Of a stretch of 56,409 nt of DNA, positions 3,130-47,998 are shown one piece after another; the stretch's first letter is position 1, and the number at the start of each line of letters is the position of its first letter. A model generated the notes under the pieces. That model was not told the origin of the DNA, ran no database searches, and worked only from the letters and a program-made list of their open reading frames with translations. The position numbers were made by a program, and so were the translations under genes. The DNA comes from a virus (Duplodnaviria > Heunggongvirae > Uroviricota > Caudoviricetes): the IMG/VR virus record IMGVR_UViG_2617270940_000006, one strand, 5' to 3'.

Positions 3130-3795
3130 ATGACCAAGATCATTGTGGTTGGCGGCACAAAAGGCGGCCCAGGCAAATCTACCGTTGCCCAGCAAATTGC
3201 GGTATGTCTCAAAGTTAAAAAGAAAAAGAAGGTTCACGTCACCGATATCGATATCCAGCGCACCACGACCAGCTGGTGTGAAGACCGTCGCCAGAACGAA
3301 GATCTTGAACTGATCCCGTTCGCTTATGTGCAGGACGACATCGTCAAACATCTTAAATCGCTTCAGGGGCGAACTGATTATGTAGTGGTAGATGCTGGTG
3401 GCTTTGACTCCGAAATTCAGCGTCTGGCGATGCTTATGGCTGATGTAATCATCATCCCGCTGCGCCCTAAACGTCGTGATTTGAAATCTCTGCGTGATAT
3501 CGACCCGATTATCGACAACGTTCGCAATGTGAACGAGAAAGTTAAGATCCGCGCGGTAATAAACCAGTGTCCGTCATTGCCTTCCCAGGTATCACGTATT
3601 CTAGCCGCGAAGGAAATTGTCGAAACTTTCGGCATCGAGGCTGCGCCGGTCAATCTGTACAACCGTAACGTTTATGACGATGCGGAAGAGGCAGGTCGTT
3701 CTATCTTTGAAATGACTGGCGCTGAACGCGATAAGAAGGCAGAAGCCGAGTTCGAAGAGTTTGTAGATTACATCTTGAGTCTGGAGGAAGAATAA
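3130..3795 (+). CDS. parA: ParA-family partition ATPase (small type)
   Basis: Deviant Walker A (GGTKGGPGKST); 221 aa; followed by a small overlapping partner gene. Confidence 0.85.
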   Translation: MTKIIVVGGTKGGPGKSTVAQQIAVCLKVKKKKKVHVTDIDIQRTTTSWCEDRRQNEDLELIPFAYVQDDIVKHLKSLQGRTDYVVVDAGGFDSEIQRLAMLMADVIIIPLRPKRRDLKSLRDIDPIIDNVRNVNEKVKIRAVINQCPSLPSQVSRILAAKEIVETFGIEAAPVNLYNRNVYDDAEEAGRSIFEMTGAERDKKAEAEFEEFVDYILSLEEE

Positions 3796-4154
3796 TGTCC
3801 ATGAGAATGGGAGACCTTGCAAAGCGCAATGAGCCTAAAGAACCGGCCAAAAGCAGCACTCCACTGCGCCAGCCAGTCAGACCGCAGGGGCGTCCGACTC
3901 GTGGCAAAGAGAAAATTAAAAGTCGCACAATGTCACTGGAGGACGAATACTTCGAACTGCTGGAAATGATGAAGTTCATCCCTCGTTTCGAGAAGTTCAC
4001 CCGTTCTGACGTGATTCGCGCCGCCATTTTCCATCTGGCAGAGAAGTCACCGCAGGAAATCGAGGACATCGTGAAACTTAACGAGGCGATCACAGCTGCC
4101 GATGTCACGATGCGTACCGATGAAATCAAACGAGAGTTGATGAAGAAAGGTTAA
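3795..4154 (+). CDS. Partition DNA-binding partner candidate (ParG/ParB-like)
   Basis: 119 aa; start overlaps the parA stop (TAATG); basic N-terminal tail and a short folded C-terminal domain. Confidence 0.45.
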   Translation: MSMRMGDLAKRNEPKEPAKSSTPLRQPVRPQGRPTRGKEKIKSRTMSLEDEYFELLEMMKFIPRFEKFTRSDVIRAAIFHLAEKSPQEIEDIVKLNEAITAADVTMRTDEIKRELMKKG

Positions 4155-4157
4155 AAA

Positions 4158-4192
4158 TTATGCATTGGCGCAATGTACGCGCCAATGCATAA
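4158..4192. terminator. Bidirectional hairpin between convergent genes
   Basis: 14-bp perfect stem (TTATGCATTGGCGC/GCGCCAATGCATAA) with a 7-nt loop, flanked by an A-run and a T-containing tail. Confidence 0.5.
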
Positions 4193-5256: not shown

Positions 5257-5982
5257 GTGAGCCAGATCTTCTTCAACACTATCGACAATGACCAGTACGA
5301 TTTCATGACAGAGTGGAATACCGCTGTTATGGACAAGTGGGTCGCTGAAAACATTGGTTTGTCGCGCTGTAAAGACGAGGCTGAACTCTTCGAGACGAAG
5401 TGGTTTGATTACCGCGACATGCACCCACTTATGGCCACATGCCTTTTCACTGAGGCATACAAGCGCCAGTACTCATACATCATGCTGTCGCATGGTCGTG
5501 AACACTATGAGACGGCTCCATTCACAACCGGTCTGAAGCGTGTGCCATATCAGGAGTTGTCGACGGTCAACAAAACGTCGCTCTGGAAAGCACGCCAGTT
5601 TGCTGACCGCTATTGCTGCTCATACGACTACTTTATCTCCACCGTTCTTTCCGCAGCTGCACGACGGCTGTGGGACAAATTACCGCGCCCCCAGCATCTC
5701 TGGCAGCCCGAGTTGATCGAGATATTCGAAGAGAAGTTAGCCAAACGCGCTGTAACCCGTCTGGATGACTCTCTGGTGAGTTTTAAGCATCTTGGAGACA
5801 TGCAGCGTGACCCGATTCAGGAACGCTATTTTGAGTGGATTCTGGAGCGTCTGCGTGGCATTACCCGAGATAAACGCATCCGTATCATCTTCTCCGCTGT
5901 CTGGTTGATGGAAATCGTGCCTGAGCGTGTGATTTACGCGCACTTCCCGGAAGAACTGGAAGAAGCACGGCGATTCTGTTGA
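5257..5982 (+). CDS. Hypothetical protein
   Basis: 241-aa ORF preceded by a class A palindromic motif; no recognisable domain. Confidence 0.5.
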   Translation: MSQIFFNTIDNDQYDFMTEWNTAVMDKWVAENIGLSRCKDEAELFETKWFDYRDMHPLMATCLFTEAYKRQYSYIMLSHGREHYETAPFTTGLKRVPYQELSTVNKTSLWKARQFADRYCCSYDYFISTVLSAAARRLWDKLPRPQHLWQPELIEIFEEKLAKRAVTRLDDSLVSFKHLGDMQRDPIQERYFEWILERLRGITRDKRIRIIFSAVWLMEIVPERVIYAHFPEELEEARRFC

Positions 5983-7470: not shown

Positions 7471-8655
7471 ATGAGCCTTTATGGTATTCAAATACCGAGG
7501 CTTATCAAGATATTACCTGCAAAAAACAGGGGTAAGAACGTGAGCGACTTGAAAGAATTACTGACCGAGCTGGATTTTGAGCAATGGCTCGATATGGAAG
7601 GGATCATCTACCGTCATGGTGGAGTCAGTACTCGCGGACGAGAGGTCAACATTAAAGAGTGTCCGGTATGCGGCAGCTCAAACTGGAAGGTTTATTTCAA
7701 CCTGACCAGTGGTGTCGGCAAATGCTTTGCAGGTGATCATCCCGAAGAGATTCAGTTCAATAAGCTGGTCTTCCTAAAGCATTACAGCGGCAAATCCCGT
7801 CGCGATTTTGAAGAGTACGTCCAGAACGCGCTGATCTCACAAGGTTGGGCGCCGAAGAAGGAAGAGATCGTGCTGGCCAGCAAGGTTGAACTGGAAGGAC
7901 CGGTAGCTCTCCCGCGCCATTACGAACTCCCCATTGACGGTCGTCTTCCTGATTATCTGGTGGAGCGCCAGATTTCCCCGGAGCTGGCCAAATACTTTGA
8001 TCTGCGTTACTGCGTCGAAGGCAAGCACGCATACGTCGATCCGTACACAGACCAGGTCAAAGGACAGGTATTCGATATGCGAATACTGATACCGGTTTAC
8101 GATCTGGATGGCGTGATGAAGACCTTCCAGGGTCGTGACATTACCGGTGCAGCAGAACGCCGGTATCTGTTCCCCATGCAGCTGCCAGCATCGGGTAAAT
8201 TTCTCTACAACGGCCACAATGCAGTCGGCAAACAGACTGTAGTTGTCTGTGAGGGGGCGTTCGATGTTATGGGGGTTAAACGAGCTATTTTTGATGAAGA
8301 AACATTACGCGATTACGTGGAACCGATAGGAACGTTCGGGATGCATCTATCTGGTAACACCACTCAGGATGCAGAAGATCAGTTGGGCGCGTTCCTGACG
8401 CTCAAGGCGCGTGGATTACGTAATGTGATTATGATGTGGGATAGTGAAAAGCAAGCTATACGCAACACGATGGCCGCAGCCAGGCGACTGACCAGTATCG
8501 GTCTTAATGTCAAAGTAGCGTGTTTGGGCGAGGAAGGACTCGATCCCGGCGATGCGACACCGGGGCAGATTATCAAAGCCTACTATTGCGCAAAACCTTA
8601 TTCACGACAGCTTGAACTTTTAAGCAAGGTAAAAGGCATAGCTGCATTAGTTTGA
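7471..8655 (+). CDS. DnaG-like primase (zinc finger + TOPRIM)
   Basis: CPVCGSS...C zinc motif and a TOPRIM-like VVVCEGAFD segment; start chosen at the ATG with the conserved context, not the upstream track start. Confidence 0.8.
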   Translation: MSLYGIQIPRLIKILPAKNRGKNVSDLKELLTELDFEQWLDMEGIIYRHGGVSTRGREVNIKECPVCGSSNWKVYFNLTSGVGKCFAGDHPEEIQFNKLVFLKHYSGKSRRDFEEYVQNALISQGWAPKKEEIVLASKVELEGPVALPRHYELPIDGRLPDYLVERQISPELAKYFDLRYCVEGKHAYVDPYTDQVKGQVFDMRILIPVYDLDGVMKTFQGRDITGAAERRYLFPMQLPASGKFLYNGHNAVGKQTVVVCEGAFDVMGVKRAIFDEETLRDYVEPIGTFGMHLSGNTTQDAEDQLGAFLTLKARGLRNVIMMWDSEKQAIRNTMAAARRLTSIGLNVKVACLGEEGLDPGDATPGQIIKAYYCAKPYSRQLELLSKVKGIAALV

Positions 8656-17560: not shown

Positions 17561-18883
17561 ATGGAAAAACTGATCGCCCTAAAGCACAAGCTGGATGCTA
17601 TTAAAACGATGGGAACCAACGCCAAGAAAGAGGCGCTGGCCAATCTGGATGAATTTGAACAGAGCATGGTCTCGCTAATGCTCAATCCATTCATTCGATT
17701 CGGTGTGAAGAAGTACAAAGTGGCCGAGCCACTCGATACTTCCGTACCCAGCGACCAGAAGGTAGTAGATCTGCTGGAGAAGCTGGCAGCGCGCGAACTG
17801 ACCGGGAACATCGCTATTGCTGCTGTCGAATCACTCGTTGCCTCGATGTGCGCTGACGGGCAGGACGTGTTTCGTCGCTTCCTGCTGAAAGATCCGAAAG
17901 CCGGTGTCGGCATCAGCCTGTGCAACAAGGTGTTCAAAAACCCAATTCCGAAGTTTGAGGTACAGCTGGCGTCTCCGTACAAGGAGAAAGGCGACAAATA
18001 CCCATTTAAACCAAATCCAAAGGCCAAGTGGCCAATGATCGGCAGTCTCAAACTCGATGGTCTCCGGGTTATCTGCGAAGTCATCGTGGACGAGGGTGAG
18101 GTCAATTTCCTGACGCGCACCGGCAATCCGATTACGTCACTCGATCACCTTAAACCAGCCATGCTGGAGCGGGGCAGAGTCTCCGGCTTCAATCACATCT
18201 TCTTCGATGGAGAGGGCACTGCAGGTACATTCAACCAGTCAGTGTCGGCGCTTCGTAAGAAGAACGTGAAAGCCATTGGTGCCGTTTACCACATTTTCGA
18301 TTTCTTCTTACCGGAGTGGCGTGCTCAAGCAAAAAGCAAAGAGTACCTGAAGACCGGTATGAAGCTGAAAGAGCGCCTGGCTATGCTGGTGGCGTTGTTC
18401 CGCAACACTTGCGTGGAAGATTATGCGCAAGATATCCACCTTCATCCGTTCTACATCATCCATAGCCACGAAGATTTCATCGAACGTTTCATGAAGCGAC
18501 TGGACGAGAATGAAGAGGGAGAGATGGGCAAAGATCCGGATTCAGTTTACGAGTTCAAACGTACCCGCAGCTGGTGGAAGCTGAAAGACGAGGATTCAGA
18601 AGACGGTGAAATCATCGACTTCGAGCCTGGCGATCCGGATTCTGGATTTGCGCATACGCTAGGCAAGATAGTGATTCGTCTGGAGAACGGCGTCATCGTT
18701 CGTGCCAGCGGTATCAAGCATAAATACCTGGATGAAATCTGGAACAATCAGGAGAAGTATCGTGGGCGCATCGTTGAGGTTCACTGCCATGAGAAAACGC
18801 CAGACGGTAGCTTACGCCACCCACGTCTGAAGTGGCCGAAATGTCTGCGAGATACCGAAGACCGTATTGGAGATAAAGACTGA
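17561..18883 (+). CDS. ATP-dependent DNA ligase
   Basis: Adenylation motif with the KxDG lysine (IGSLKLDGLRV); 440 aa. Confidence 0.85.
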   Translation: MEKLIALKHKLDAIKTMGTNAKKEALANLDEFEQSMVSLMLNPFIRFGVKKYKVAEPLDTSVPSDQKVVDLLEKLAARELTGNIAIAAVESLVASMCADGQDVFRRFLLKDPKAGVGISLCNKVFKNPIPKFEVQLASPYKEKGDKYPFKPNPKAKWPMIGSLKLDGLRVICEVIVDEGEVNFLTRTGNPITSLDHLKPAMLERGRVSGFNHIFFDGEGTAGTFNQSVSALRKKNVKAIGAVYHIFDFFLPEWRAQAKSKEYLKTGMKLKERLAMLVALFRNTCVEDYAQDIHLHPFYIIHSHEDFIERFMKRLDENEEGEMGKDPDSVYEFKRTRSWWKLKDEDSEDGEIIDFEPGDPDSGFAHTLGKIVIRLENGVIVRASGIKHKYLDEIWNNQEKYRGRIVEVHCHEKTPDGSLRHPRLKWPKCLRDTEDRIGDKD

Positions 18884-19042
18884 TGCTTGGCTGGATGTTT
18901 GTATTTTTAGTCGTCGGCATTGTTATCGGAAGTCTGGTTATGTCCAGCTGTATCCACGATTACGTAAAAGCCGGTGTCATGCAAAGGCGAGGTCGTATTT
19001 ATCGCATAGTAGATATCACGGACACACTGAAGGAGATTAAGG

Positions 19043-19255
19043 ATGATCATGTTAAGTAAACGAGAGAAGGAAACCCTGCGTGAAATCAGCAAGTGGAAGG
19101 AATTCTACGCCAACTGGAAGCCGAAGACCAGAGCCAAACTGGAGCGCATGAATCTTGTCGCTAACGTTTCGCCAAAGGGATGTGTGGAGAACTATCAACT
19201 CACTGAAAAAGGTTATTTGTTGTTGCAGCAATTGACTGAGGCGGGGGCATACTGA
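19043..19255 (+). CDS. Small hypothetical protein
   Basis: 70-aa ORF within a run of short coupled ORFs (18884-19709). Confidence 0.35.
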   Translation: MIMLSKREKETLREISKWKEFYANWKPKTRAKLERMNLVANVSPKGCVENYQLTEKGYLLLQQLTEAGAY

Positions 19256-19403
19256 TGATTCCATACATCATTTTATCATTCACTGGTGGCGTGGGCCTCG
19301 GCCTCGCAATCTGCCGCGCCCTGGTCCAGCAGGAACTGAAAACCAAAACACTTCGTGTTGGTAAGCGTGTGTATCGGGTTGTTCACGAGACGGGAGTGCG
19401 AAA

Positions 19404-19709
19404 ATGAGCAATTTGACTTCCTTCGACTGGTGGCTGGCAACCTACCTTGTTGCGGCCGGCTTCGGATTTGCCTTTTACGTTGGTCAGTTAATCGTAAAGC
19501 TACTGCTGATAAGATTCGCCAGCCATAAACGCATAGACGACGGTCTGTGGCGTCTGGGGTCCCTGTTAGAGACGCATTACGGCGAACTCAAGGAAAACGA
19601 AACTATCACTATTCAAGCGAAGCGTTTTACCGCCATCATCACGAGAACTCCGGAACAAAAGGGGAGCCTGATCAAAAAGATAGCAACTAAACGCATTACA
19701 GATAGATAA
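19404..19709 (+). CDS. Small membrane protein
   Basis: 101-aa ORF with an N-terminal TM helix; overlaps the preceding small ORF by ATGA. Confidence 0.4.
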   Translation: MSNLTSFDWWLATYLVAAGFGFAFYVGQLIVKLLLIRFASHKRIDDGLWRLGSLLETHYGELKENETITIQAKRFTAIITRTPEQKGSLIKKIATKRITDR

Positions 19710-20452
19710 GTATTTACTTACTTATCTAATATGTATAAGATCACTTTGTTTTCGTTGAGATGCGACTGTTTGAACGTTAAATATAACTGCAAACGAAGAT
19801 GCATACCTGGCAGTAGCCTAAGAAGCCAAACACCAGCGAGGTCAGTTTCCAGCCTCGTCACCAAAATGGGACACACTGAGCGAGTGTGATTGCAGAACGC
19901 AGAATAGGGCATATTGCACCATCCATGCCCTATTCAATGAAGTAACAGAATGGGCGGTTGGTTTCATCATTCCATTCACCCATCCCGGTTTCAGCTGACC
20001 GTCCATTCTGTTACGTCATTTCCATTACTTATGTCGTTTATACTTGGGTTAAAAGCGGCGACGTAACCCGGCTGACTTGGTTAGTCAGCACATAACGTTG
20101 AGATCACTGATTTTTCTTAAAATCATACAGGCGATTCCACATAGCTGTAGCGACTGATCAATATGTTGGGTTGAACATTAATCGGTTCAGTGATCTCAAC
20201 GTTGTGAAAGCAGGATTAATTAACCCTCTAGTGAAAACATTGTTGCCTTTATTGCCCCTGGCTTCACAACATGTATGATTCCATACATCCAATAAGATTG
20301 AAGAATCTAACGGCAATCAACCACCGAGAAAGATTCCAGATCTTCGCTCATATGAGCGAGCCACATACCTCGTCTGGCACTAACGTAAAGTGCAAGTTGC
20401 GGGAAAGTTTCTGGCTGCCTGGTTGTCCATAAGCTAGTACCGCCGCGAAAAT

Positions 20453-20524
20453 GATGGTGTAGCTCAGTGGTAGAGCGGTTGACTGTTAATCAACTGGTCG
20501 GTGGTTCGAGTCCACCCACCATCG
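20453..20524 (+). tRNA. tRNA-Asn (anticodon GTT)
   Basis: Hand-folded cloverleaf: 7-bp acceptor stem (GATGGTG/CACCATC), D-stem GCTC/GAGC, anticodon stem GTTGA/TCAAC with loop CTGTTAA, T-arm GGTGG-TTCGAGT-CCACC. Confidence 0.85.
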
Positions 20525-20681
20525 CCGACATAGCGCTGAACGGTTTGGATTCGCCACCACCGTCCGAACGAAAGACTCCGCAAATGTCGCCAGACCGTTC
20601 AGCGCTGTGATAGACACGGCAGACGTTTTTTTAACCATTGCTTCTAAGCATCGTAGCAACACTTTTTTCAGCGCAAAATCC

Positions 20682-20704
20682 AAAGGGGCTTCGGCCCCTT
20701 TTTG
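20682..20704 (+). terminator. Rho-independent terminator
   Basis: AAGGGGC-TTCG-GCCCCTT stem-loop followed by a T-run. Confidence 0.7.
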
Positions 20705-20781
20705 CTATCAAGTCGCATATGCAACCAACTTTTTTAGCTTATAGTTAAGTTCAGTAGTAGAATGCTACGCTTCGTCGAGAA

Positions 20782-21297
20782 ATGACGATTATGGAGTCTA
20801 TCGTGAAATTTAAAATCCAGCATTTGCAGGCAGCAGTGGCACTGGTTCTTGCCAGTATCCAGCCGCAACCCAAAGCGGTTGCGTGTCAGCCTACGATTGT
20901 AGAACGGGTTTATGAGATGGGCGCTAGAGTCAACAAAACCGACATCAGTGATCTTACAGCTGCTCTCAATGAATTGGCTAAAGAACTGCGTTCAAGCCGC
21001 GCTGAACTTGCTCGTTATGCTGACACTGACTTCTTTGCTGCTATCAAAGTAGCGGAAGAAATTAAGAATCAAACTATTCATGTAGCCGGTATCGCAGAAT
21101 CTTTTGTTTTGATGTTACCTGAAAAAGACGTCATCATGTCTTACGACAAAAACACTGTTGAGTTTGCGTTTTTTAAGGCTATTAAAATGGTCAGTATTGC
21201 GACCAAAAACTATCTCAATCTGATTGATCAGATTACACACACTTCTGTAGTGCGTGACTCTGGCGTCAACCTTTTAGCCATGAACCATTCTAGCTGA
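20782..21297 (+). CDS. Hypothetical protein
   Basis: 171-aa ORF; no recognisable motif. Confidence 0.45.
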   Translation: MTIMESIVKFKIQHLQAAVALVLASIQPQPKAVACQPTIVERVYEMGARVNKTDISDLTAALNELAKELRSSRAELARYADTDFFAAIKVAEEIKNQTIHVAGIAESFVLMLPEKDVIMSYDKNTVEFAFFKAIKMVSIATKNYLNLIDQITHTSVVRDSGVNLLAMNHSS

Positions 21298-21464
21298 ACT
21301 TTAGCGATCGTCATCTTCTTCATCATTCTTTTTCTTCTAACAAATCATTCTCATCAATCTGGCTCAGATGGCATTCCAAAGTTGGCGTTATTAGGCGCTT
21401 TTTACTATTTAGCGTTTAAGATGGTTTGTCTACATAATTTATTCAGAATTTACGTAAGCTATAT

Positions 21465-21499
21465 AAATGATTCCATACTTGTAAGGTATGGAATCATTT
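21465..21499. promoter_or_regulatory. Perfect 35-bp palindrome (14-7-14), candidate recombinase core site or operator
   Basis: AAATGATTCCATAC-TTGTAAG-GTATGGAATCATTT, about 100 bp upstream of the tyrosine recombinase gene. Confidence 0.45.
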
Positions 21500-21597
21500 T
21501 CAAAAACAGTCTATTTTACTGTTGATCATACAAAAACTGAGGCCTAACACACTGTTTATAAATACAGTAAAAACAGGCTTCACTCAGTGAGTGGACT

Positions 21598-22701
21598 ATG
21601 AAAAACACTTTTGATAAAGCACGCGCAGCAGAAAACACCTCTAGAGAAGCCATCGAGTATCTCGAACGCGCTTCCGGTTTGTCAGCAGTGTCGACCACCA
21701 ATTTCGACGGTGACATGTCGTTTTCTTCCGCATTCATGTTATTCACTCGCTTATCTTTGCTGATAACGAGACGTCGACCTGAAATAGCTGTTCATTGTAT
21801 TTTGATACATGTAATGCCGCATATCTGTGAAGTAAAAGTAAGTGACATTAGTAGGGTTTTAGTCAACCAGCTGGTGAACCCATTAATACTTGAGGGCAAG
21901 ATCGTCCAGGGCAGACGTGTGTTCTCGCTGATGAAGCAGTTTCTCAGTTGGTGTGCATTTCAGGGCTTAATTGATACATCCCCATTGAACGATATGTCGC
22001 TTAACAGAGTAGCCGGTGGCGCGAAGCCCACGCCGCGCGAGCGCAAACTGACCGACGCAGAGGTCTGGGTCTTTTGGAATGTATGGGACTACTTCAACGT
22101 ATGTGAGGGTACAAAGTGGGCGGCCAGATTATGCCTTGTAGCGGCCAGACGACCAGATGAAGTGCTCCGAGCTAAAAGATCAGAATTCAACCTCGAATAT
22201 AATTTATGGAATCAAGGAACGAGGAATAAATCGGCTCGCCAGCACTCGTTACCATTAAGCCCGCTAATGCGCAAATGTGTTGAGGAGCTGATCAAATACG
22301 GAAAAGGCAGCCAGTGGCTTGTTCCTTCAAACAAGAAACAGGGTGAGGATGTGCCAATGTCTAAGGTGGCCATATCACAGGCGTTGAGAAGGATTTTAGA
22401 ACGTCCAGAGTTGATGGAGCTTGAGCCATTTACCCCCCGAGATTTGCGTCGTACTGCGCGTAGTTACTTCCCCGCGTTAGGCATAAGTCAGGAGGTATCC
22501 CGCAAAATTATGAACCACAGTCTTGAGGGGATAGATCGAGTATACGATCGACACGATTATATAGACGAGATGCGAGACGCCTTAAACAGTTTTTCGGCGT
22601 ACATCGCATCAATCGTAGAGAAACAGGATTTAGAGGAGATAGATCATAAGTTCAAGGGAGATCGACTCGCTACTGAGCTAATCCGTGTAAATTTCTCATA
22701 G
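21598..22701 (+). CDS. Tyrosine site-specific recombinase
   Basis: C-terminal catalytic region with RD...LRRTARSYF and HSLEGIDRVYDRHDY, consistent with the R-H-R-Y signature. Confidence 0.8.
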   Translation: MKNTFDKARAAENTSREAIEYLERASGLSAVSTTNFDGDMSFSSAFMLFTRLSLLITRRRPEIAVHCILIHVMPHICEVKVSDISRVLVNQLVNPLILEGKIVQGRRVFSLMKQFLSWCAFQGLIDTSPLNDMSLNRVAGGAKPTPRERKLTDAEVWVFWNVWDYFNVCEGTKWAARLCLVAARRPDEVLRAKRSEFNLEYNLWNQGTRNKSARQHSLPLSPLMRKCVEELIKYGKGSQWLVPSNKKQGEDVPMSKVAISQALRRILERPELMELEPFTPRDLRRTARSYFPALGISQEVSRKIMNHSLEGIDRVYDRHDYIDEMRDALNSFSAYIASIVEKQDLEEIDHKFKGDRLATELIRVNFS

Positions 22702-23094
22702 CGACTTGATTGCCTCAACAACCCGCTCCGACGCACCACGTTGGTCACCGAAACGTCGACGGAAGGCTTCCAGAACTAGTTTTTCATCTTTAGTCAGAGG
22801 GGCTGTGCCTTCGTCGCGAAAAAACGCTAACAGCTCTGGATGACGCTCTTCCAGCACCATTAGCATCAATCGGACCGAATCGGCATCCAATGCTTTAGCC
22901 AACGCTCTGACCTTGTCGATCGGAAGCGGGATTTTGCCGCTCTTGATAAGTGAAAGATTGTTAGGGTTTTTATAGCCTGCTTCTTTCGCGATGGTCGCCT
23001 GGCTTTTCGGAGAAATCGCGATTAAAGCGTCAATGTAAGCAGCGTAGCGACCTACTTTAGCTTCTGTTGTTTCGTTGGTAGCCATAATTATCAA
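22696..23094 (-). CDS. HTH (XRE/Cro-CI-like) transcriptional regulator
   Basis: 132 aa; helix-turn-helix segment TIAKEAGYKNPNNLSLIKSG; convergent with the recombinase gene. Confidence 0.6.
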   Translation of the reverse strand: MIIMATNETTEAKVGRYAAYIDALIAISPKSQATIAKEAGYKNPNNLSLIKSGKIPLPIDKVRALAKALDADSVRLMLMVLEERHPELLAFFRDEGTAPLTKDEKLVLEAFRRRFGDQRGASERVVEAIKSL

Positions 23095-23665
23095 CCTGCG
23101 TGTTTTGATTTTATTTGGTAAGTGCTTACTGATATTACATCAAAGGTTAGTGTTGTAAAGACTTATCTATTTTTTTACGTAGGTTTACTGACCGCAAAAG
23201 GCTTCATTAATAGACAACTATCTAAAAAATAACTCATTTAAGAACTTAAAACTAAGTTGTGTTTGATATATAAGTATTCCGTATTGATACAATAGGTAGT
23301 AGTATTGCAAGGCATTTACGTGTTCAGTTGGATGATATGAAATGAAAAAAATAACTTCTAATTTGATCGCCCTTGAGGTCGGACATACGGTTTCAATTGA
23401 CGATGATGGGGCAGCAGCCATACTCACTGAACTGCCAACAAAGTCTTTGTTACTTGACATGAAAGACGCAACCGCATACATCTTTGAGCTAAAGGGCAAG
23501 TGCTTCACTCTCATCAATACCGGCTGCGGTTCAGTAGCCGTCCGCACAATTTAACCCCCCCTCCCATCCTCTCTAGCGCCTGTACGAACAGATTAGATGC
23601 CTGTTCGTACAGTGATAAATTACGCACATCAGAAAACAAATTGTTTTAACAACAAGGGAATTCTA

Positions 23666-27408: not shown

Positions 27409-30400
27409 ATGAAGGCTCTGATGGTCAGAACTGACTTCTCCCTGGGAGAGTCAGCTCTAAAAGCAGAAAACGCGGTAAAAATCGCAAGAGACGCTGGCTA
27501 CACGGCTGTCATTTCCGCCGACAGCATGAATATTGCCAGTGTAATCCCTCTGCAACGTGCCGCTGGCGACGACATGTCGGTAATTTGTGGCGTTAAGCTG
27601 AATGTTGTCGACGATCCGACATACGAGCACCGCGCTCGCTTGGCGAAAGAGTCAGGAAGATGTATGGAATCATTAGTTCGTGATCGCAGCTACTGCTTCA
27701 CGGCACTGATAAAGAATGAACAAGGTTATCGCGACGTGTGCGAACTGATGACCTTAGCGAACAAGCGCGAGCAATTCTACTTTGTCCCGCGTCTGGCGCT
27801 TGAGCAGCTGACAGCCGCATATGCCAAAGGCAACATCATCCTGCTGACGTCCGACATTGGCAGTGTATTCCAGCGCCGGGACTTCGCAAAAATTATCGGG
27901 ACGCTGGTCACAGCTGGCGGTCGCGATAACTTCTACAGCGTGGTTTATCCGCACCCTACCCCATTCTACGACCAGATTAACGTCCGGGCGATGAAAGTGG
28001 CGAGCGCACTGAAAATAGAGCCAGTGGCGTTCTATCCCGCTTATTACGAAGCGATCGACGACGCTGACATTAAAGACATTGCGCACATGGTTACGAACAA
28101 CATCAAAATCGACCAGCCGCATCGTCTGCGCATCCCCCACCAGCGAGATAACGCTGTTAATGGTCGTCGCCATCTCCTTGAAGCGCTGAAAGCCTTCTCC
28201 GTTCGCATGGGCGTACCGGTAACAGCTGCAATGGCCTCAACAACGCAGGACACCATTATTGAAGCCTGCACATGGCGCTGGCATGAACTGCCACCAGCAC
28301 TGCCCAAGATGGCAGACGACGAGCCTGCAACGCTGATGAAGCTGGCTGTCGCGGGGCTACGCAAGCGTCTAACTACTAAAGAGTTTGGCTACACACCACC
28401 GGCTTCTGAGCACCGAGTGTATGTTGAGCGACTGAAGTACGAAATGGACACGCTGACCCGCCTGGGCTTCTGTGGCTACTTCCTGATGGTGCGCGACCTG
28501 ATGAATCACAGCCGTGAAACTGGCATTCCTGTCGGGCCAGGTCGTGGTTCCTCTGCCGGTTCTCTGGTGGCGTGGTGCATAGGCATAACCAACGTCGATC
28601 CTATCCGTCACGGTCTTCTGTTTGAGCGTTTCATCAACCCTGAACGTCTTGACTTACCGGATGCGGATCTGGACTTCAGCCAGGCACGTCGTCATGAGGT
28701 GATCGAGTATCTGAATGAACGCTATGGCGAAGATTACGTTGCCGGTATTCCAAACTTCACCTATCTGGGCGCCGCTTCTGCGCTGCGAGACACTGCGCGT
28801 ATTTACGGTGTCGACGCTGCGGATATGGCGGTATCCAAAGAGTTCAAGAATCTGGAAGACGATAGCCTATCTCTGGAAGAGCTGCGCGAACAACTGGCCA
28901 GCCTGGACAAATACACCACGAAAAACCCGGAAGCGTTCAAAGCGGCGTGTAAGCTACAAAGCCTGATGCGTGGTTTTGGCCGTCATGCAGCGGGGATGAT
29001 CGTCGCTGGCGTTCCACTGGTAGAGCGCACGCCCGTCGAGCTGCGTGGCAACGCTCGCTGTATTGCATTCGATAAACGTTACTGCGAGGCAATGGGGCTG
29101 ATTAAGCTGGACGTTCTCGGTCTGGCAACGCTCGATCTGCTGGATAGCGCGAAACGCTACATCAAAGAGAGTACCGGGGAAGACATCAATCTCGATGCTA
29201 TCCCACTGGACGATCGCAAAGTTCTGGATGGGTTCGCTGCAGGGTACACTCAGGGCGTATTCCAGCTGGAGTCCGGCCCCATGCGCAAGCTGCTTAAAGA
29301 TCTGGGCGGTGGCATTGAGCCAATGAGCTTCAAAACCGTTGTCGCCACGACCGCACTCTTCCGACCTGGCCCGATTCAATCAGGCATGTTGGACGACTAT
29401 GTCTCCGTGGCCAAAGGCTTCATGGCTCCACATTCAATTCATCCGCGTCTTGAGGAAGTCACCCGGGAGACTAATGGTGTTTTGCTCTATCAGGAACAAA
29501 TCATGCAAAGTTCCCGAGTACTTGCCGGGTTCTCTATGGCCGAAGCAGACGCTCTGCGTTCCGCTATCGGTAAAAAGAACATGGATAAGATGAAAGCGAT
29601 CGGCAGCGATTTTGTAGAACGAGCACAAGCAGGCTGGGTGACACTGTCACTCAAAAATGGAGGTACTGTAGAGGTTCACAAACACGCAAAACTGGATTGC
29701 TCAGACGGTAAGCGTAGAAGCTACAGCGAGGCTATTAGTGACGGCATAGACTACGTGGAGATCGTCTCTGAACAAGAAGGTCTCAGTAAGGAAAAAGCCC
29801 AAGAAATATGGGACGCCTTTGAGAAGTTCGGTGGATATGCCTTCAACAAATCACACAGCGTTGCTTATTCTTTAATCAGCTATCAGTCTATGTGGTTAAA
29901 GACACATTACCCTGCTGAGTTCTTCGCTGCTGCGCTCACCATTCTGGGCGAGGATAAGCACCAGGGCTTAGTTAAAGATGCGCTGACCTATGGCATTCGC
30001 GTATTGCCACCAGACGTTAACGTGTCATCTAACCGAATTGAGATCCGCACGCTGGAAGACGGCAGTCAGGTTCTGTATGCACCATTCTCTGCTGTGAAGG
30101 GCTGCTCTGAGAATGGTTGCCAGGCCATCATGAGAGCGCGTGAGAAAGTTGGCGGCAAATTCGAGTCACTTGAGCAATTTGAGGAAGCGGTCGAGAAGCG
30201 TGCATGTAACAGCCGGGTACGCGAATCACTGCAAAAAGTCGGTGCGTTCGCATCGATTGAGTCTGGCAGTCTGCCAGCGACAGATCCGGAACGGCTGCGC
30301 GACCAGGCAGAGTTGATGGGTAATCTGGTGATCGACGCTGTAAAAGCCTCTCGACCGTTCGAGATGACCCCTAAGCGCTCTGCTGAAGTAAATGTACTGA

Positions 30401-47398: not shown

Positions 47399-47998
47399 TA
47401 TCCACTGCGGTGAGTAGCCAGTTCACCGCGTGTGAATCCGGCTCATAACCACTGTAGCGAGTAGAACACCCTTCAGGTATGCCCCCCAACCACTGTAGTG
47501 AGCAAACCCTCTGCCACGATATCAACTATCCACTGTAGTGAGTAAATTGGTGATTATCGGGGTCGCTATACACTGTAGTGAGTAAACAGGCGTTCACTGA
47601 CTACAAACAACCACTATAGAGAGTGATGGAATGCCCCCTCCAGCGGATATCCACTATGGAGAGTAAATCTTCGCTGTTTTAAACGGATATCCACTCACTA
47701 CAGTGGATAGAGGTCAAGTCAGCCAATTCTGCTCTTCACAGTGGATAGTCAACAATGAGGAGAGCGACGATAACCGCTGTAGAGAGTAGACTTAACAGAG
47801 ATACCCAGTGACCGCTAACCTCTCAGCCCTTGTTTTATCTATGTTTGCAACCACTAACATTTACTTCGCGATTTGTGCGCACTGCCTACAGTGGTTATTC
47901 TTCGGTTTCTTTTACTCACTACAGTGGATATTGCATTTCCGATAAACAAAAAGGCTCACTACAGTGGATAGTGAGCCTTTTTACTCTCTACAGTGGTT
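47399..47998. repeat. Iteron array downstream of repA (incA-like copy-control locus)
   Basis: About 14 copies of a 19-bp-class repeat with core CCACTGTAGTGAGTA, in both orientations. Confidence 0.8.

Follow-up and report, generated by a model that had tools for sequence, protein, structure and literature searches.

A putative recombinase target palindrome and its dispersed half-sites in SSU5-type phage-plasmids

Phage-plasmids may carry recombinases for dimer resolution, and tyrosine recombinases, with their target undefined, are among the persistent genes of the SSU5 supergroup (Pfeifer et al., PMC7969092). In about 50% of the cases tested, a palindrome located within 1 kb of a Cre-type recombinase gene turned out to be its genuine target (PMC10250229). 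The present analysis concerns a palindrome found upstream of a tyrosine recombinase gene (int) in a 56,409-nucleotide stretch of viral DNA, IMGVR_UViG_2617270940_000006 (the window). The comparative evidence described below makes it very probable that the Int protein binds this palindrome. With moderate confidence, we favor the interpretation that plasmid multimers are resolved by crossover at the palindrome, which would also act in the autoregulation of int; what we infer within this interpretation is that Int binds and cleaves the site, recombines it and resolves dimers, and that int is autoregulated and under LexA control.

According to the proposed mechanism, one Int monomer would bind each 12-13-bp arm of the palindrome, and a tetramer would bring the two sites of a plasmid dimer, or any pair of directly repeated copies, into synapsis. 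Strand exchange across the 7-bp asymmetric spacer would convert the dimer to monomers, hence ensuring faithful segregation of the low-copy phage-plasmid. The right arm appears to overlap the -35 element of the ancestral int promoter, so that occupancy of the site probably represses int. A second, LexA-box promoter, found in the enterobacterial SSU5 clade, would increase Int levels during the SOS response, the time of RecA-driven multimerisation and prophage induction.

The palindrome and its recombinase

The palindrome, AAATGATTCCATAC-TTGTAAG-GTATGGAATCATTT, is a perfect 14-7-14 inverted repeat, exactly as described in the original prediction, which placed it about 100 bp upstream of the recombinase gene (the measured gap is 98 bp; Table 1). 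By our own arithmetic, about 2e-4 perfect 14-7-14 inverted repeats are expected by chance in 56 kb. The window holds three, the other two being unrelated in sequence to the int-adjacent one. The arms contain the 12-mer ATGATTCCATAC at positions 21467 (+) and 21486 (-). Exact copies of this 12-mer are present at 19255 (+) and 20275 (+), where they had been noticed previously, and a further exact copy, overlooked at the time, is found at 27662 (-) within dnaE. The five matches compare with 0.32 expected, and none of 100 shuffled sequences reached five. The arm kept across relatives is 12-13 bp long, (A)ATGATTCCATAC; in the 14-bp arm, the outermost A is lineage-specific. The geometry had been likened to that of lox/dif-type sites. 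The likeness holds for the general layout of a tyrosine recombinase core site, two inverted arms around an asymmetric spacer of 6-8 bp (14-7-14 in the window; arms of 11-17 bp and a 7-bp spacer in nearly all relatives), but the site is of the form 12/13-7-12/13 and not 13-8-13. A literature search for ATGATTCCATAC returned unrelated primer matches only; no paper describing this site was found, and the motif does not appear in the paper reporting the discovery of Cre-type systems (PMC10250229).

About 200 related loci were compared. Among 2.9 million viral contigs searched (IMG/VR), the palindrome occurs in 112 retrievable stretches; int adjoins it in 106 of these and the remaining six end close to the site. 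In 80 IMG/VR loci whose Int proteins are 80-100% identical, both arms are always there, 19 bp apart and approximately 130 bp upstream of int. The one-genome-per-species scan, carried out with a profile of distant Int homologues, yielded 65 loci, including 63 full-length relatives (42-100% identity). A site of like geometry lies 45 to 245 bp upstream of int in each full-length relative, and the only loci of the scan without it are a truncated gene fragment and an outlier with 26% identity. Loss of the palindrome from elements that keep the recombinase, the finding that was to speak against the prediction, did not occur: the site is present in 63/63 full-length relatives and in all untruncated viral loci. 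In one viral contig (IMGVR_UViG_3300045988_154041; L073/L218), about 1.9 kb of DNA is inserted between the palindrome (position 5962) and int (position 8001).

The arms are invariant across some 90 SSU5-type loci, in which the spacer occurs in eight forms, the 25 bp to the left of the palindrome are unrelated between lineages and the right flank is conserved only in part. When the 99% and 79% E. coli lineages are aligned by BLAST, their homology begins at the palindrome's left edge. Clades with 58-63% Int identity (Klebsiella michiganensis type, Nissabacter, Serratia, Chimaeribacter) retain GATTCCATAC arms. The relatives at 45-50% identity (Pantoea, Rahnella, Erwinia, Ewingella, Hafnia, Xenorhabdus, Photorhabdus and Morganella), with arms of 11-17 bp and a 7-bp spacer 90-245 bp upstream of the gene, carry GACTCCAGAC in place of GATTCCATAC, the same two positions being switched in both arms. 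Mixed or asymmetric arms are found in Biostraticola and in second Chimaeribacter copies. Over this deep divergence, 10 of the 12 arm positions are invariant in sequence.

One could imagine that the palindrome is a structural hairpin (a terminator or an RNA/DNA stem-loop) or the operator of an XRE-type repressor, unrelated to Int. It does fold as a 15-bp stem (-12.7 kcal/mol, z = -6.3), a TTTT sequence directly follows it in the window and the changes between clades are compensatory. However, the terminator scan did not call it and the T-run is lineage-specific, being absent elsewhere, and a terminator was rejected. Nor would a hairpin account for 10/12 positions being fixed in sequence or for the conservation of single arms that cannot form one (see below), while an XRE operator is at odds with the persistence of the site in megaplasmid loci from which the XRE gene is absent. 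This explanation is very improbable.

Seventeen distinct spacers were recorded, 13 of which fit TTnnnAG or its complement CTnnnAA. The TTAATAG/CTATTAA spacer is the commonest in the ACTCCAGAC clade and the second commonest in the ATTCCATAC clade, and it is found in both orientations relative to int. The orientation of the spacer relative to the gene is therefore free, as expected if only the mutual orientation of two copies would matter.

The pair formed by int and its site is also found outside phage-plasmids, spread over megaplasmids of 250-570 kb in Erwiniaceae and Yersiniaceae, with unrelated neighbors. In Pantoea vagans pPV989-508 (508 kb; L148) and Rahnella PRA1 (571 kb; L149) it lies among siderophore, type VI secretion and chemotaxis genes. 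Because these loci keep the site without having the phage-plasmid XRE repressor, cobT or dnaE genes, the site is the operator of no other neighbor. Altogether, strict co-occurrence, covariation of the arms, independence from other neighbors and a plasmid-only location tie the palindrome to the adjacent recombinase, as proposed originally.

The product of int has the tyrosine recombinase fold with its catalytic set. Residues R185, K211, R281, R284 and Y316 are invariant across 26 homologues (42-100% identity); H307 is present in 23 of them and replaced by Q in three. From their motifs and spacing, these residues were taken as the canonical Arg-Lys-His-Arg-His/Trp-Tyr set, in which Arg here stands in for the first His. 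In an AlphaFold2 model of Int (pLDDT 83), the nearest folds are those of the core-binding and catalytic domains of lambda Int and Tn1549 Int, with XerH and XerA also among the structural matches; a profile search of PDB sequences with Int found nothing. The Pfam search detected no Arm-DNA-bind domain in Int, whose residues 1-60 are predicted to be helical (pLDDT 67-93), and more distant homologues (28-33% identity) carry a P4-type Arm-DNA-bind_3 domain (PF13356). Int therefore looks like an integrase-lineage enzyme turned into a simple two-domain recombinase, which would work like Cre without being a relative of Cre. A protein with a predicted helical N-terminus and no detected arm-binding domain would fit a simple site devoid of arm-type sites. 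No arm-type repeats flank the palindrome, and the isolated sites described below repeat the core arm and not a distinct arm motif. Seven Int residues (positions 15, 49, 66, 67, 163, 176 and 257) are fixed differently in the 42-50% and the 57-86% identity homologues (S/G, F/W, H/S, C/S, W/L, A/L and V/G, respectively), and the two groups match the ACTCCAGAC and ATTCCATAC arm types, respectively, wherever loci were checked. As three of the seven positions fall in predicted helices of the core-binding domain, these residues are candidate determinants of specificity.

The original prediction assigned the module to a P1-like element. The window comes instead from a phage-plasmid of the SSU5/pHCM2/pMT1 type: the neighboring genes include those for an ATP-dependent ligase, cobT-like and cobS-like genes and dnaE, and nucleotide matches are to E. 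coli IncFIB phage-plasmids (99%) and to phage Cyrano (pLF82; 76%). An int gene with 92% identity is carried by a 108-kb Yersinia pestis contig (L083), of the lineage of the plague plasmid pMT1. The view of the palindrome as the recombinase's own site is supported, and the function suggested for it in part, but its attribution to a P1/Cre system was wrong in detail. In 5,426 complete E. coli genomes, int was found in 251 genomes at 253 places, all of them plasmid; the palindrome was found in 252 genomes, once per record and never in a chromosome. The complete 108-kb Cyrano genome likewise contains one palindrome. PLSDB holds 929 plasmid records with an Int relative, of which 896 are typed non-mobilizable. 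A plasmid-borne site, present once per replicon and next to the recombinase gene, is the arrangement of a multimer-resolution module.

These data bear on the possibility that Int is a true integrase and the palindrome its attP-like site, through which the plasmid would insert at a matching attB of a chromosome or of a different replicon. Int is annotated as integrase and folds most like the lambda and Tn1549 integrases, the nearest outgroup proteins (28-33% identity) carry Arm-DNA-bind_3, and a 7-bp spacer has the length of the lambda overlap. On the other hand, none of the 253 int copies and no palindrome copy is chromosomal in the E. coli set, and the search for attB or integrated copies there drew a blank. 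The palindrome is intact at every locus examined, with no split attL/attR-like site; Int has no detected arm-binding domain and the site no flanking arm-type repeats; and the long, perfectly symmetric arms do not resemble lambda-type core sites. The plasmid-only location and the lack of split sites argue against an integrase role, which we consider improbable, and fit a function exerted in cis on the plasmid.

Promoters of int and isolated half-sites

Two putative promoters precede int (Table 1). The first, P1, emerges from the comparison of flanking sequences, in which TAnAAT, TATATT and TATTTT were counted as -10-like hexamers. Of 51 distinct Pantoea-type flanks on the int side, 36 have such a hexamer starting at an offset of 14 or 16 from the core of the right arm, and none is seen at these offsets on the far side. 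In SSU5-type loci the corresponding figures for offset 16 are 12/23 on the int side versus 3/45 on the far side, the latter also having nine at offset 17. A -10 hexamer at a fixed offset, on the int side only and with a 17-bp spacer, causes the -35 to fall inside the right arm. An operator role had been considered equally possible for the palindrome. This view is upheld in part, inasmuch as the conserved -10 places the -35 within the arm, the step from there to autoregulation being our inference: the site probably also autoregulates int, as bound Int would occlude its own promoter.

The second putative promoter, P2, is overlapped by a LexA-box-like sequence, CACTGTTTATAAATACAGTA, which fits 17 of the 20 positions of the LexA consensus. 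It contains the only CTGT-N8-ACAG motif in the window. The combination of TTGATC-17-TAATAT (TAACAC in the window) with CTGT-N8-ACAG is kept in 84 of 91 SSU5-type loci; the box is absent from the clades inspected outside the enterobacterial SSU5 clade. By sequence, the CTGT-N8-ACAG box overlapping P2 makes int a putative LexA-controlled gene. int and the gene for a putative XRE-type repressor converge and overlap by 6 nt (21598-23094). SOS-induced int transcription would run antisense into the repressor gene, a possible route of induction without repressor cleavage.

It might be supposed that the main job of the module lies in the phage cycle, with SOS-induced Int circularising infecting terminally redundant DNA or processing concatemers, as Cre can for P1. 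The maintenance of the LexA-box promoter in 84/91 SSU5-type loci, the restriction of isolated sites to phage-plasmid contexts and the induction of Cyrano by genotoxic stress (PMC9928086) would all agree with such a role. However, the same module, without LexA box, resides on the 250-570-kb non-phage megaplasmids, implying that its ancestral role is independent of phage functions. We assign this possibility a low probability.

Besides the arms of the palindrome, three isolated copies of the 12-mer are found in the window (S1, S2 and S4; Table 1). They share a longer 15-mer, ATGATTCCATACATC, the isolated half-site having the form TGATTCCATAC followed by ATC; at +1 they have A versus T or C in the palindrome, and they have no spacer in common with it. 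S1, in an open reading frame (ORF) belonging to phrog_6302, is exact in 54 of 56 loci found independently of the motif, the other two loci having one C>T change. S2 lies approximately 1.0 kb downstream of S1 in most loci, amid diverged flanks. The S4 12-mer is exact in 75/75 loci found by DnaE homology, representing 27 distinct local contexts. It sits in an otherwise variable loop of DnaE, where the K. michiganensis type and Xenorhabdus, without the site, have unrelated residues; E. coli, Nissabacter and Serratia keep GATGTATGGAATCAT exactly despite only 78-80% DnaE identity. A fourth class of isolated site occurs inside int in many lineages; the window retains a degenerate remnant, partly forced by conserved WNQG codons, whose status is uncertain. 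In all, 226 exact isolated 14-mers were found in 94 loci and all point toward the palindrome, 127/127 of those upstream being on the plus strand and 99/99 of those downstream on the minus strand. A whole-genome motif census was made on Cyrano (NZ_CP100965.1 was set aside as a decayed derivative without dnaE): its five exact copies are confined to 9.2 kb of the 108-kb genome. Isolated half-sites are restricted to phage-plasmids with GATTCCATAC arms, none being present within 8 kb of int in Xenorhabdus/Morganella SSU5-like elements, Chimaeribacter or megaplasmids.

Several accounts of these sites were considered and discarded. Inspection revealed no conserved degenerate second arm at 6-8-bp spacing beside the isolated sites, nor promoters at the equivalent offset from them. 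RNA-RNA pairing of S1/S2 (sense) with S4 (antisense) was rejected as the rare variants of one site have no counterpart at the other. Nissabacter has isolated sites without an obvious LexA box, so the two features are not strictly linked. No inversion or deletion isomers between sites were encountered in about 200 loci. A lox-like model, under which these copies had been viewed originally, does not explain them. To judge from their conservation, the isolated half-sites are under purifying selection, and they are probably auxiliary sites bound by Int in a non-recombination role. It is conceivable, if tentatively so, that SSU5-type Int is bifunctional, having kept its crossover site while also binding, non-catalytically, mirror-oriented half-sites at kilobase distances: where a small membrane-protein gene begins, upstream of the tRNA cluster, and within int and dnaE. 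If so, Int would link the SOS response, through LexA-controlled int, to the expression of early or replication genes or to how the immunity region is organized, and would be the active-enzyme counterpart of XerD/XDS or MrpR/SPBRE.

A number of points weigh against the palindrome being a crossover site for multimer resolution that also regulates int. No natural recombination product showing cut or exchange at the palindrome was found, and the closest structural relatives of Int are integrases (lambda, Tn1549) rather than Cre- or Xer-type resolvases. SOS-repressed expression would be unusual for housekeeping dimer resolution, and a plain resolution model does not predict isolated half-sites. The -35 of P1 (TGGAGT or TGGAAT) is weak, with 3/6 matches, which is why a general promoter scan did not list this promoter. 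The exhaustive chromosome check covers E. coli only, and a chromosomal origin is possible for some of the 0.5-0.9-Mb contigs of Pantoea, Rahnella and Biostraticola. Finally, the ends of the spacer are constrained, less free than in lox families, which could mean operator-type sequence-specific contacts. The palindrome might be an operator only, Int (or a repurposed Int) binding it and the half-sites for transcription control without any recombination. Against this stands the invariance of the catalytic Arg, Lys, Arg and Tyr over 42-100% identity, whereas MrpR no longer functions as a recombinase (PMC10516654). Moreover, the module occurs alone on megaplasmids, where a self-regulating gene without other function would be purposeless, and the geometry of arms and spacer is that of a crossover site. 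An operator-only role is thus unlikely in our estimate.

Other features of the window and significance

Coordinates of the features discussed are collected in Table 1. The second palindrome of 14-7-14 geometry may serve in partition or terminate transcription in both directions; the third is terminator-like in look. The 12-9-12 inverted repeat, just downstream of a small ORF that follows the repressor-cobT intergenic region, is a candidate XRE-repressor operator. The noncoding region preceding S2 could be an origin or encode structured RNAs; an Rfam search across 18800-21700 detected tRNA only, with no family in this region. Integron-like capture of cassettes to the left of the palindrome was considered and rejected: the one indel examined, that of the yafO-family gene, is an ordinary deletion away from the site. 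No further motif copies were found in the variable region left of the palindrome.

Table 1. Features of the window (coordinates in nucleotides from its first position)
Feature	Coordinates	Strand	Details
Core site (palindrome)	21465..21499		Left arm 21465-21478, spacer TTGTAAG 21479-21485, right arm 21486-21499
int, tyrosine recombinase, 367 aa	21598..22701	+	Pfam Phage_integrase and Phage_int_M
P1, putative ancestral int promoter	21489..21517	+	-35 TGGAAT 21489-21494 within right arm; 17-bp spacer; -10 TATTTT 21512-21517
P2, putative second int promoter	21522..21569	+	-35 TTGATC 21522-21527; -10 TAACAC 21545-21550
LexA-box-like sequence CACTGTTTATAAATACAGTA	21550-21569		Overlaps P2 -10; CTGT-N8-ACAG at 21552-21567
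Half-site S1, ATGATTCCATACATC	19255..19269	+	Start codon and first five codons (MIPYI) of 50-aa ORF
Half-site S2, ATGATTCCATACATC	20275..20289	+	Intergenic, 164 bp upstream of tRNA-Asn (20453-20526)
Half-site S4, ATGATTCCATACATC	27659..27673	-	Inside dnaE, codons 84-89 (..CMESL..)
Degenerate remnant of int-internal site	22201..22215	-	Three mismatches; TTGATTCCATACATC over DVWNQG in other lineages; status uncertain
Putative XRE-type repressor gene	22696-23094	-	Convergent with int
Second perfect 14-7-14 palindrome	4158-4192		TTATGCATTGGCGC-N7-GCGCCAATGCATAA; 4 bp past stop of parA-like operon (3130-4154), between convergent genes
Perfect 12-9-12 inverted repeat	23580-23612		CTGTACGAACAG / CTGTTCGTACAG, across first ATG of cobT-like ORF
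Third perfect 14-7-14 palindrome	47948-47982		AAAAAGGCTCACTA / TAGTGAGCCTTTTT
Noncoding region dense with long inverted repeats	19710-20270		Between 101-aa ORF and S2; e.g. 17-bp arms AACGTTGAGATCACTGA / TCAGTGATCTCAACGTT about 75 bp apart, 12-bp arms GTAACAGAATGG / CCATTCTGTTAC
171-aa ORF	20782-21297		Fusion left by deletion of yafO-family toxin gene present in close relatives

SSU5-like phage-plasmids are among the commonest large plasmids of Enterobacteriaceae, and the family counts S. Typhi pHCM2, Y. pestis pMT1 and resistance-gene carriers among its members; about 5% of the complete E. coli genomes analyzed here carry the int-site module. The recombinase-site pair offers a handle on how such elements stay stable, and its compact 31-bp target occurs in nature with two specificities (ATTCCATAC and ACTCCAGAC arms), variants that could become orthogonal tools for genome engineering. 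Should dimer resolution be its sole function, the module would be a routine entry in a known class. The core module is ordinary and of a known class; what is new is the oriented, codon-constrained half-sites. What makes the recombinase retain oriented single half-sites, even where these constrain the codons of a DNA polymerase gene, is a testable question.

Comparison with known systems

Judged by analogy, the closest counterpart of this locus is Cre/loxP in mechanism and the lambda-type integrases by descent. Like Cre/loxP of P1, Dre/rox, VCre and Vika, the locus combines a single recombinase gene with a nearby palindrome made of long perfect arms and a short asymmetric spacer; as in Cre/loxP, the carrier is a low-copy phage-plasmid and the presumed role is multimer resolution (PMC7969092; PMC10250229). 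By descent, Int falls outside the Cre family, its fold being closest to those of the lambda and Tn1549 integrases, and in place of a 13-8-13 lox-type site on a P1-like element one finds a 7-bp spacer and 12-13-bp arms on an SSU5-like element.

Over the core-binding and catalytic domains, lambda Int and Tn1549 Int match the structure best, and the lambda overlap is also 7 bp long. The resemblance stops there: no arm-binding domain was detected in Int, which has a predicted helical N-terminus, the arms of its site are perfect and long, not short and degenerate, and no integrated forms were found. Single-recombinase Xer systems (XerH/difH, XerS/difSL and archaeal XerA/dif) likewise use one recombinase and a roughly symmetric site for dimer resolution, the role proposed here for Int. 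These systems serve chromosomes, and the bacterial ones depend on FtsK, whereas the present site is plasmid-borne and directly upstream of the gene.

In TnpI/IRS (Tn4430) and IntI1/attI1, extra single copies of the motif (DR1/DR2) accompany the inverted-repeat core, within about 100 bp. In these systems binding near the recombinase promoter can regulate it, and integron integrase promoters are LexA-controlled. The present locus shares with them the association of a core with single copies of the same motif, and its LexA box recalls the integron integrases; it differs in that the extra copies lie 1.2-6.2 kb away, some in coding sequence, on both sides and with mirror polarity. Dispersed sites at which a tyrosine-recombinase-family protein plays a non-recombination role are exemplified by the XerD-binding half-sites (XDS) of the Bacillus subtilis terminus. 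MrpR of SPbeta, a recombinase-family protein that has lost catalysis, acts in such a role at the dispersed SPBRE sites (PMC10516654). With the recombinase-fold repressors (MrpR/YopR, SroF), from which Int differs in keeping its catalytic residues, the likeness lies only in the layout of the sites.

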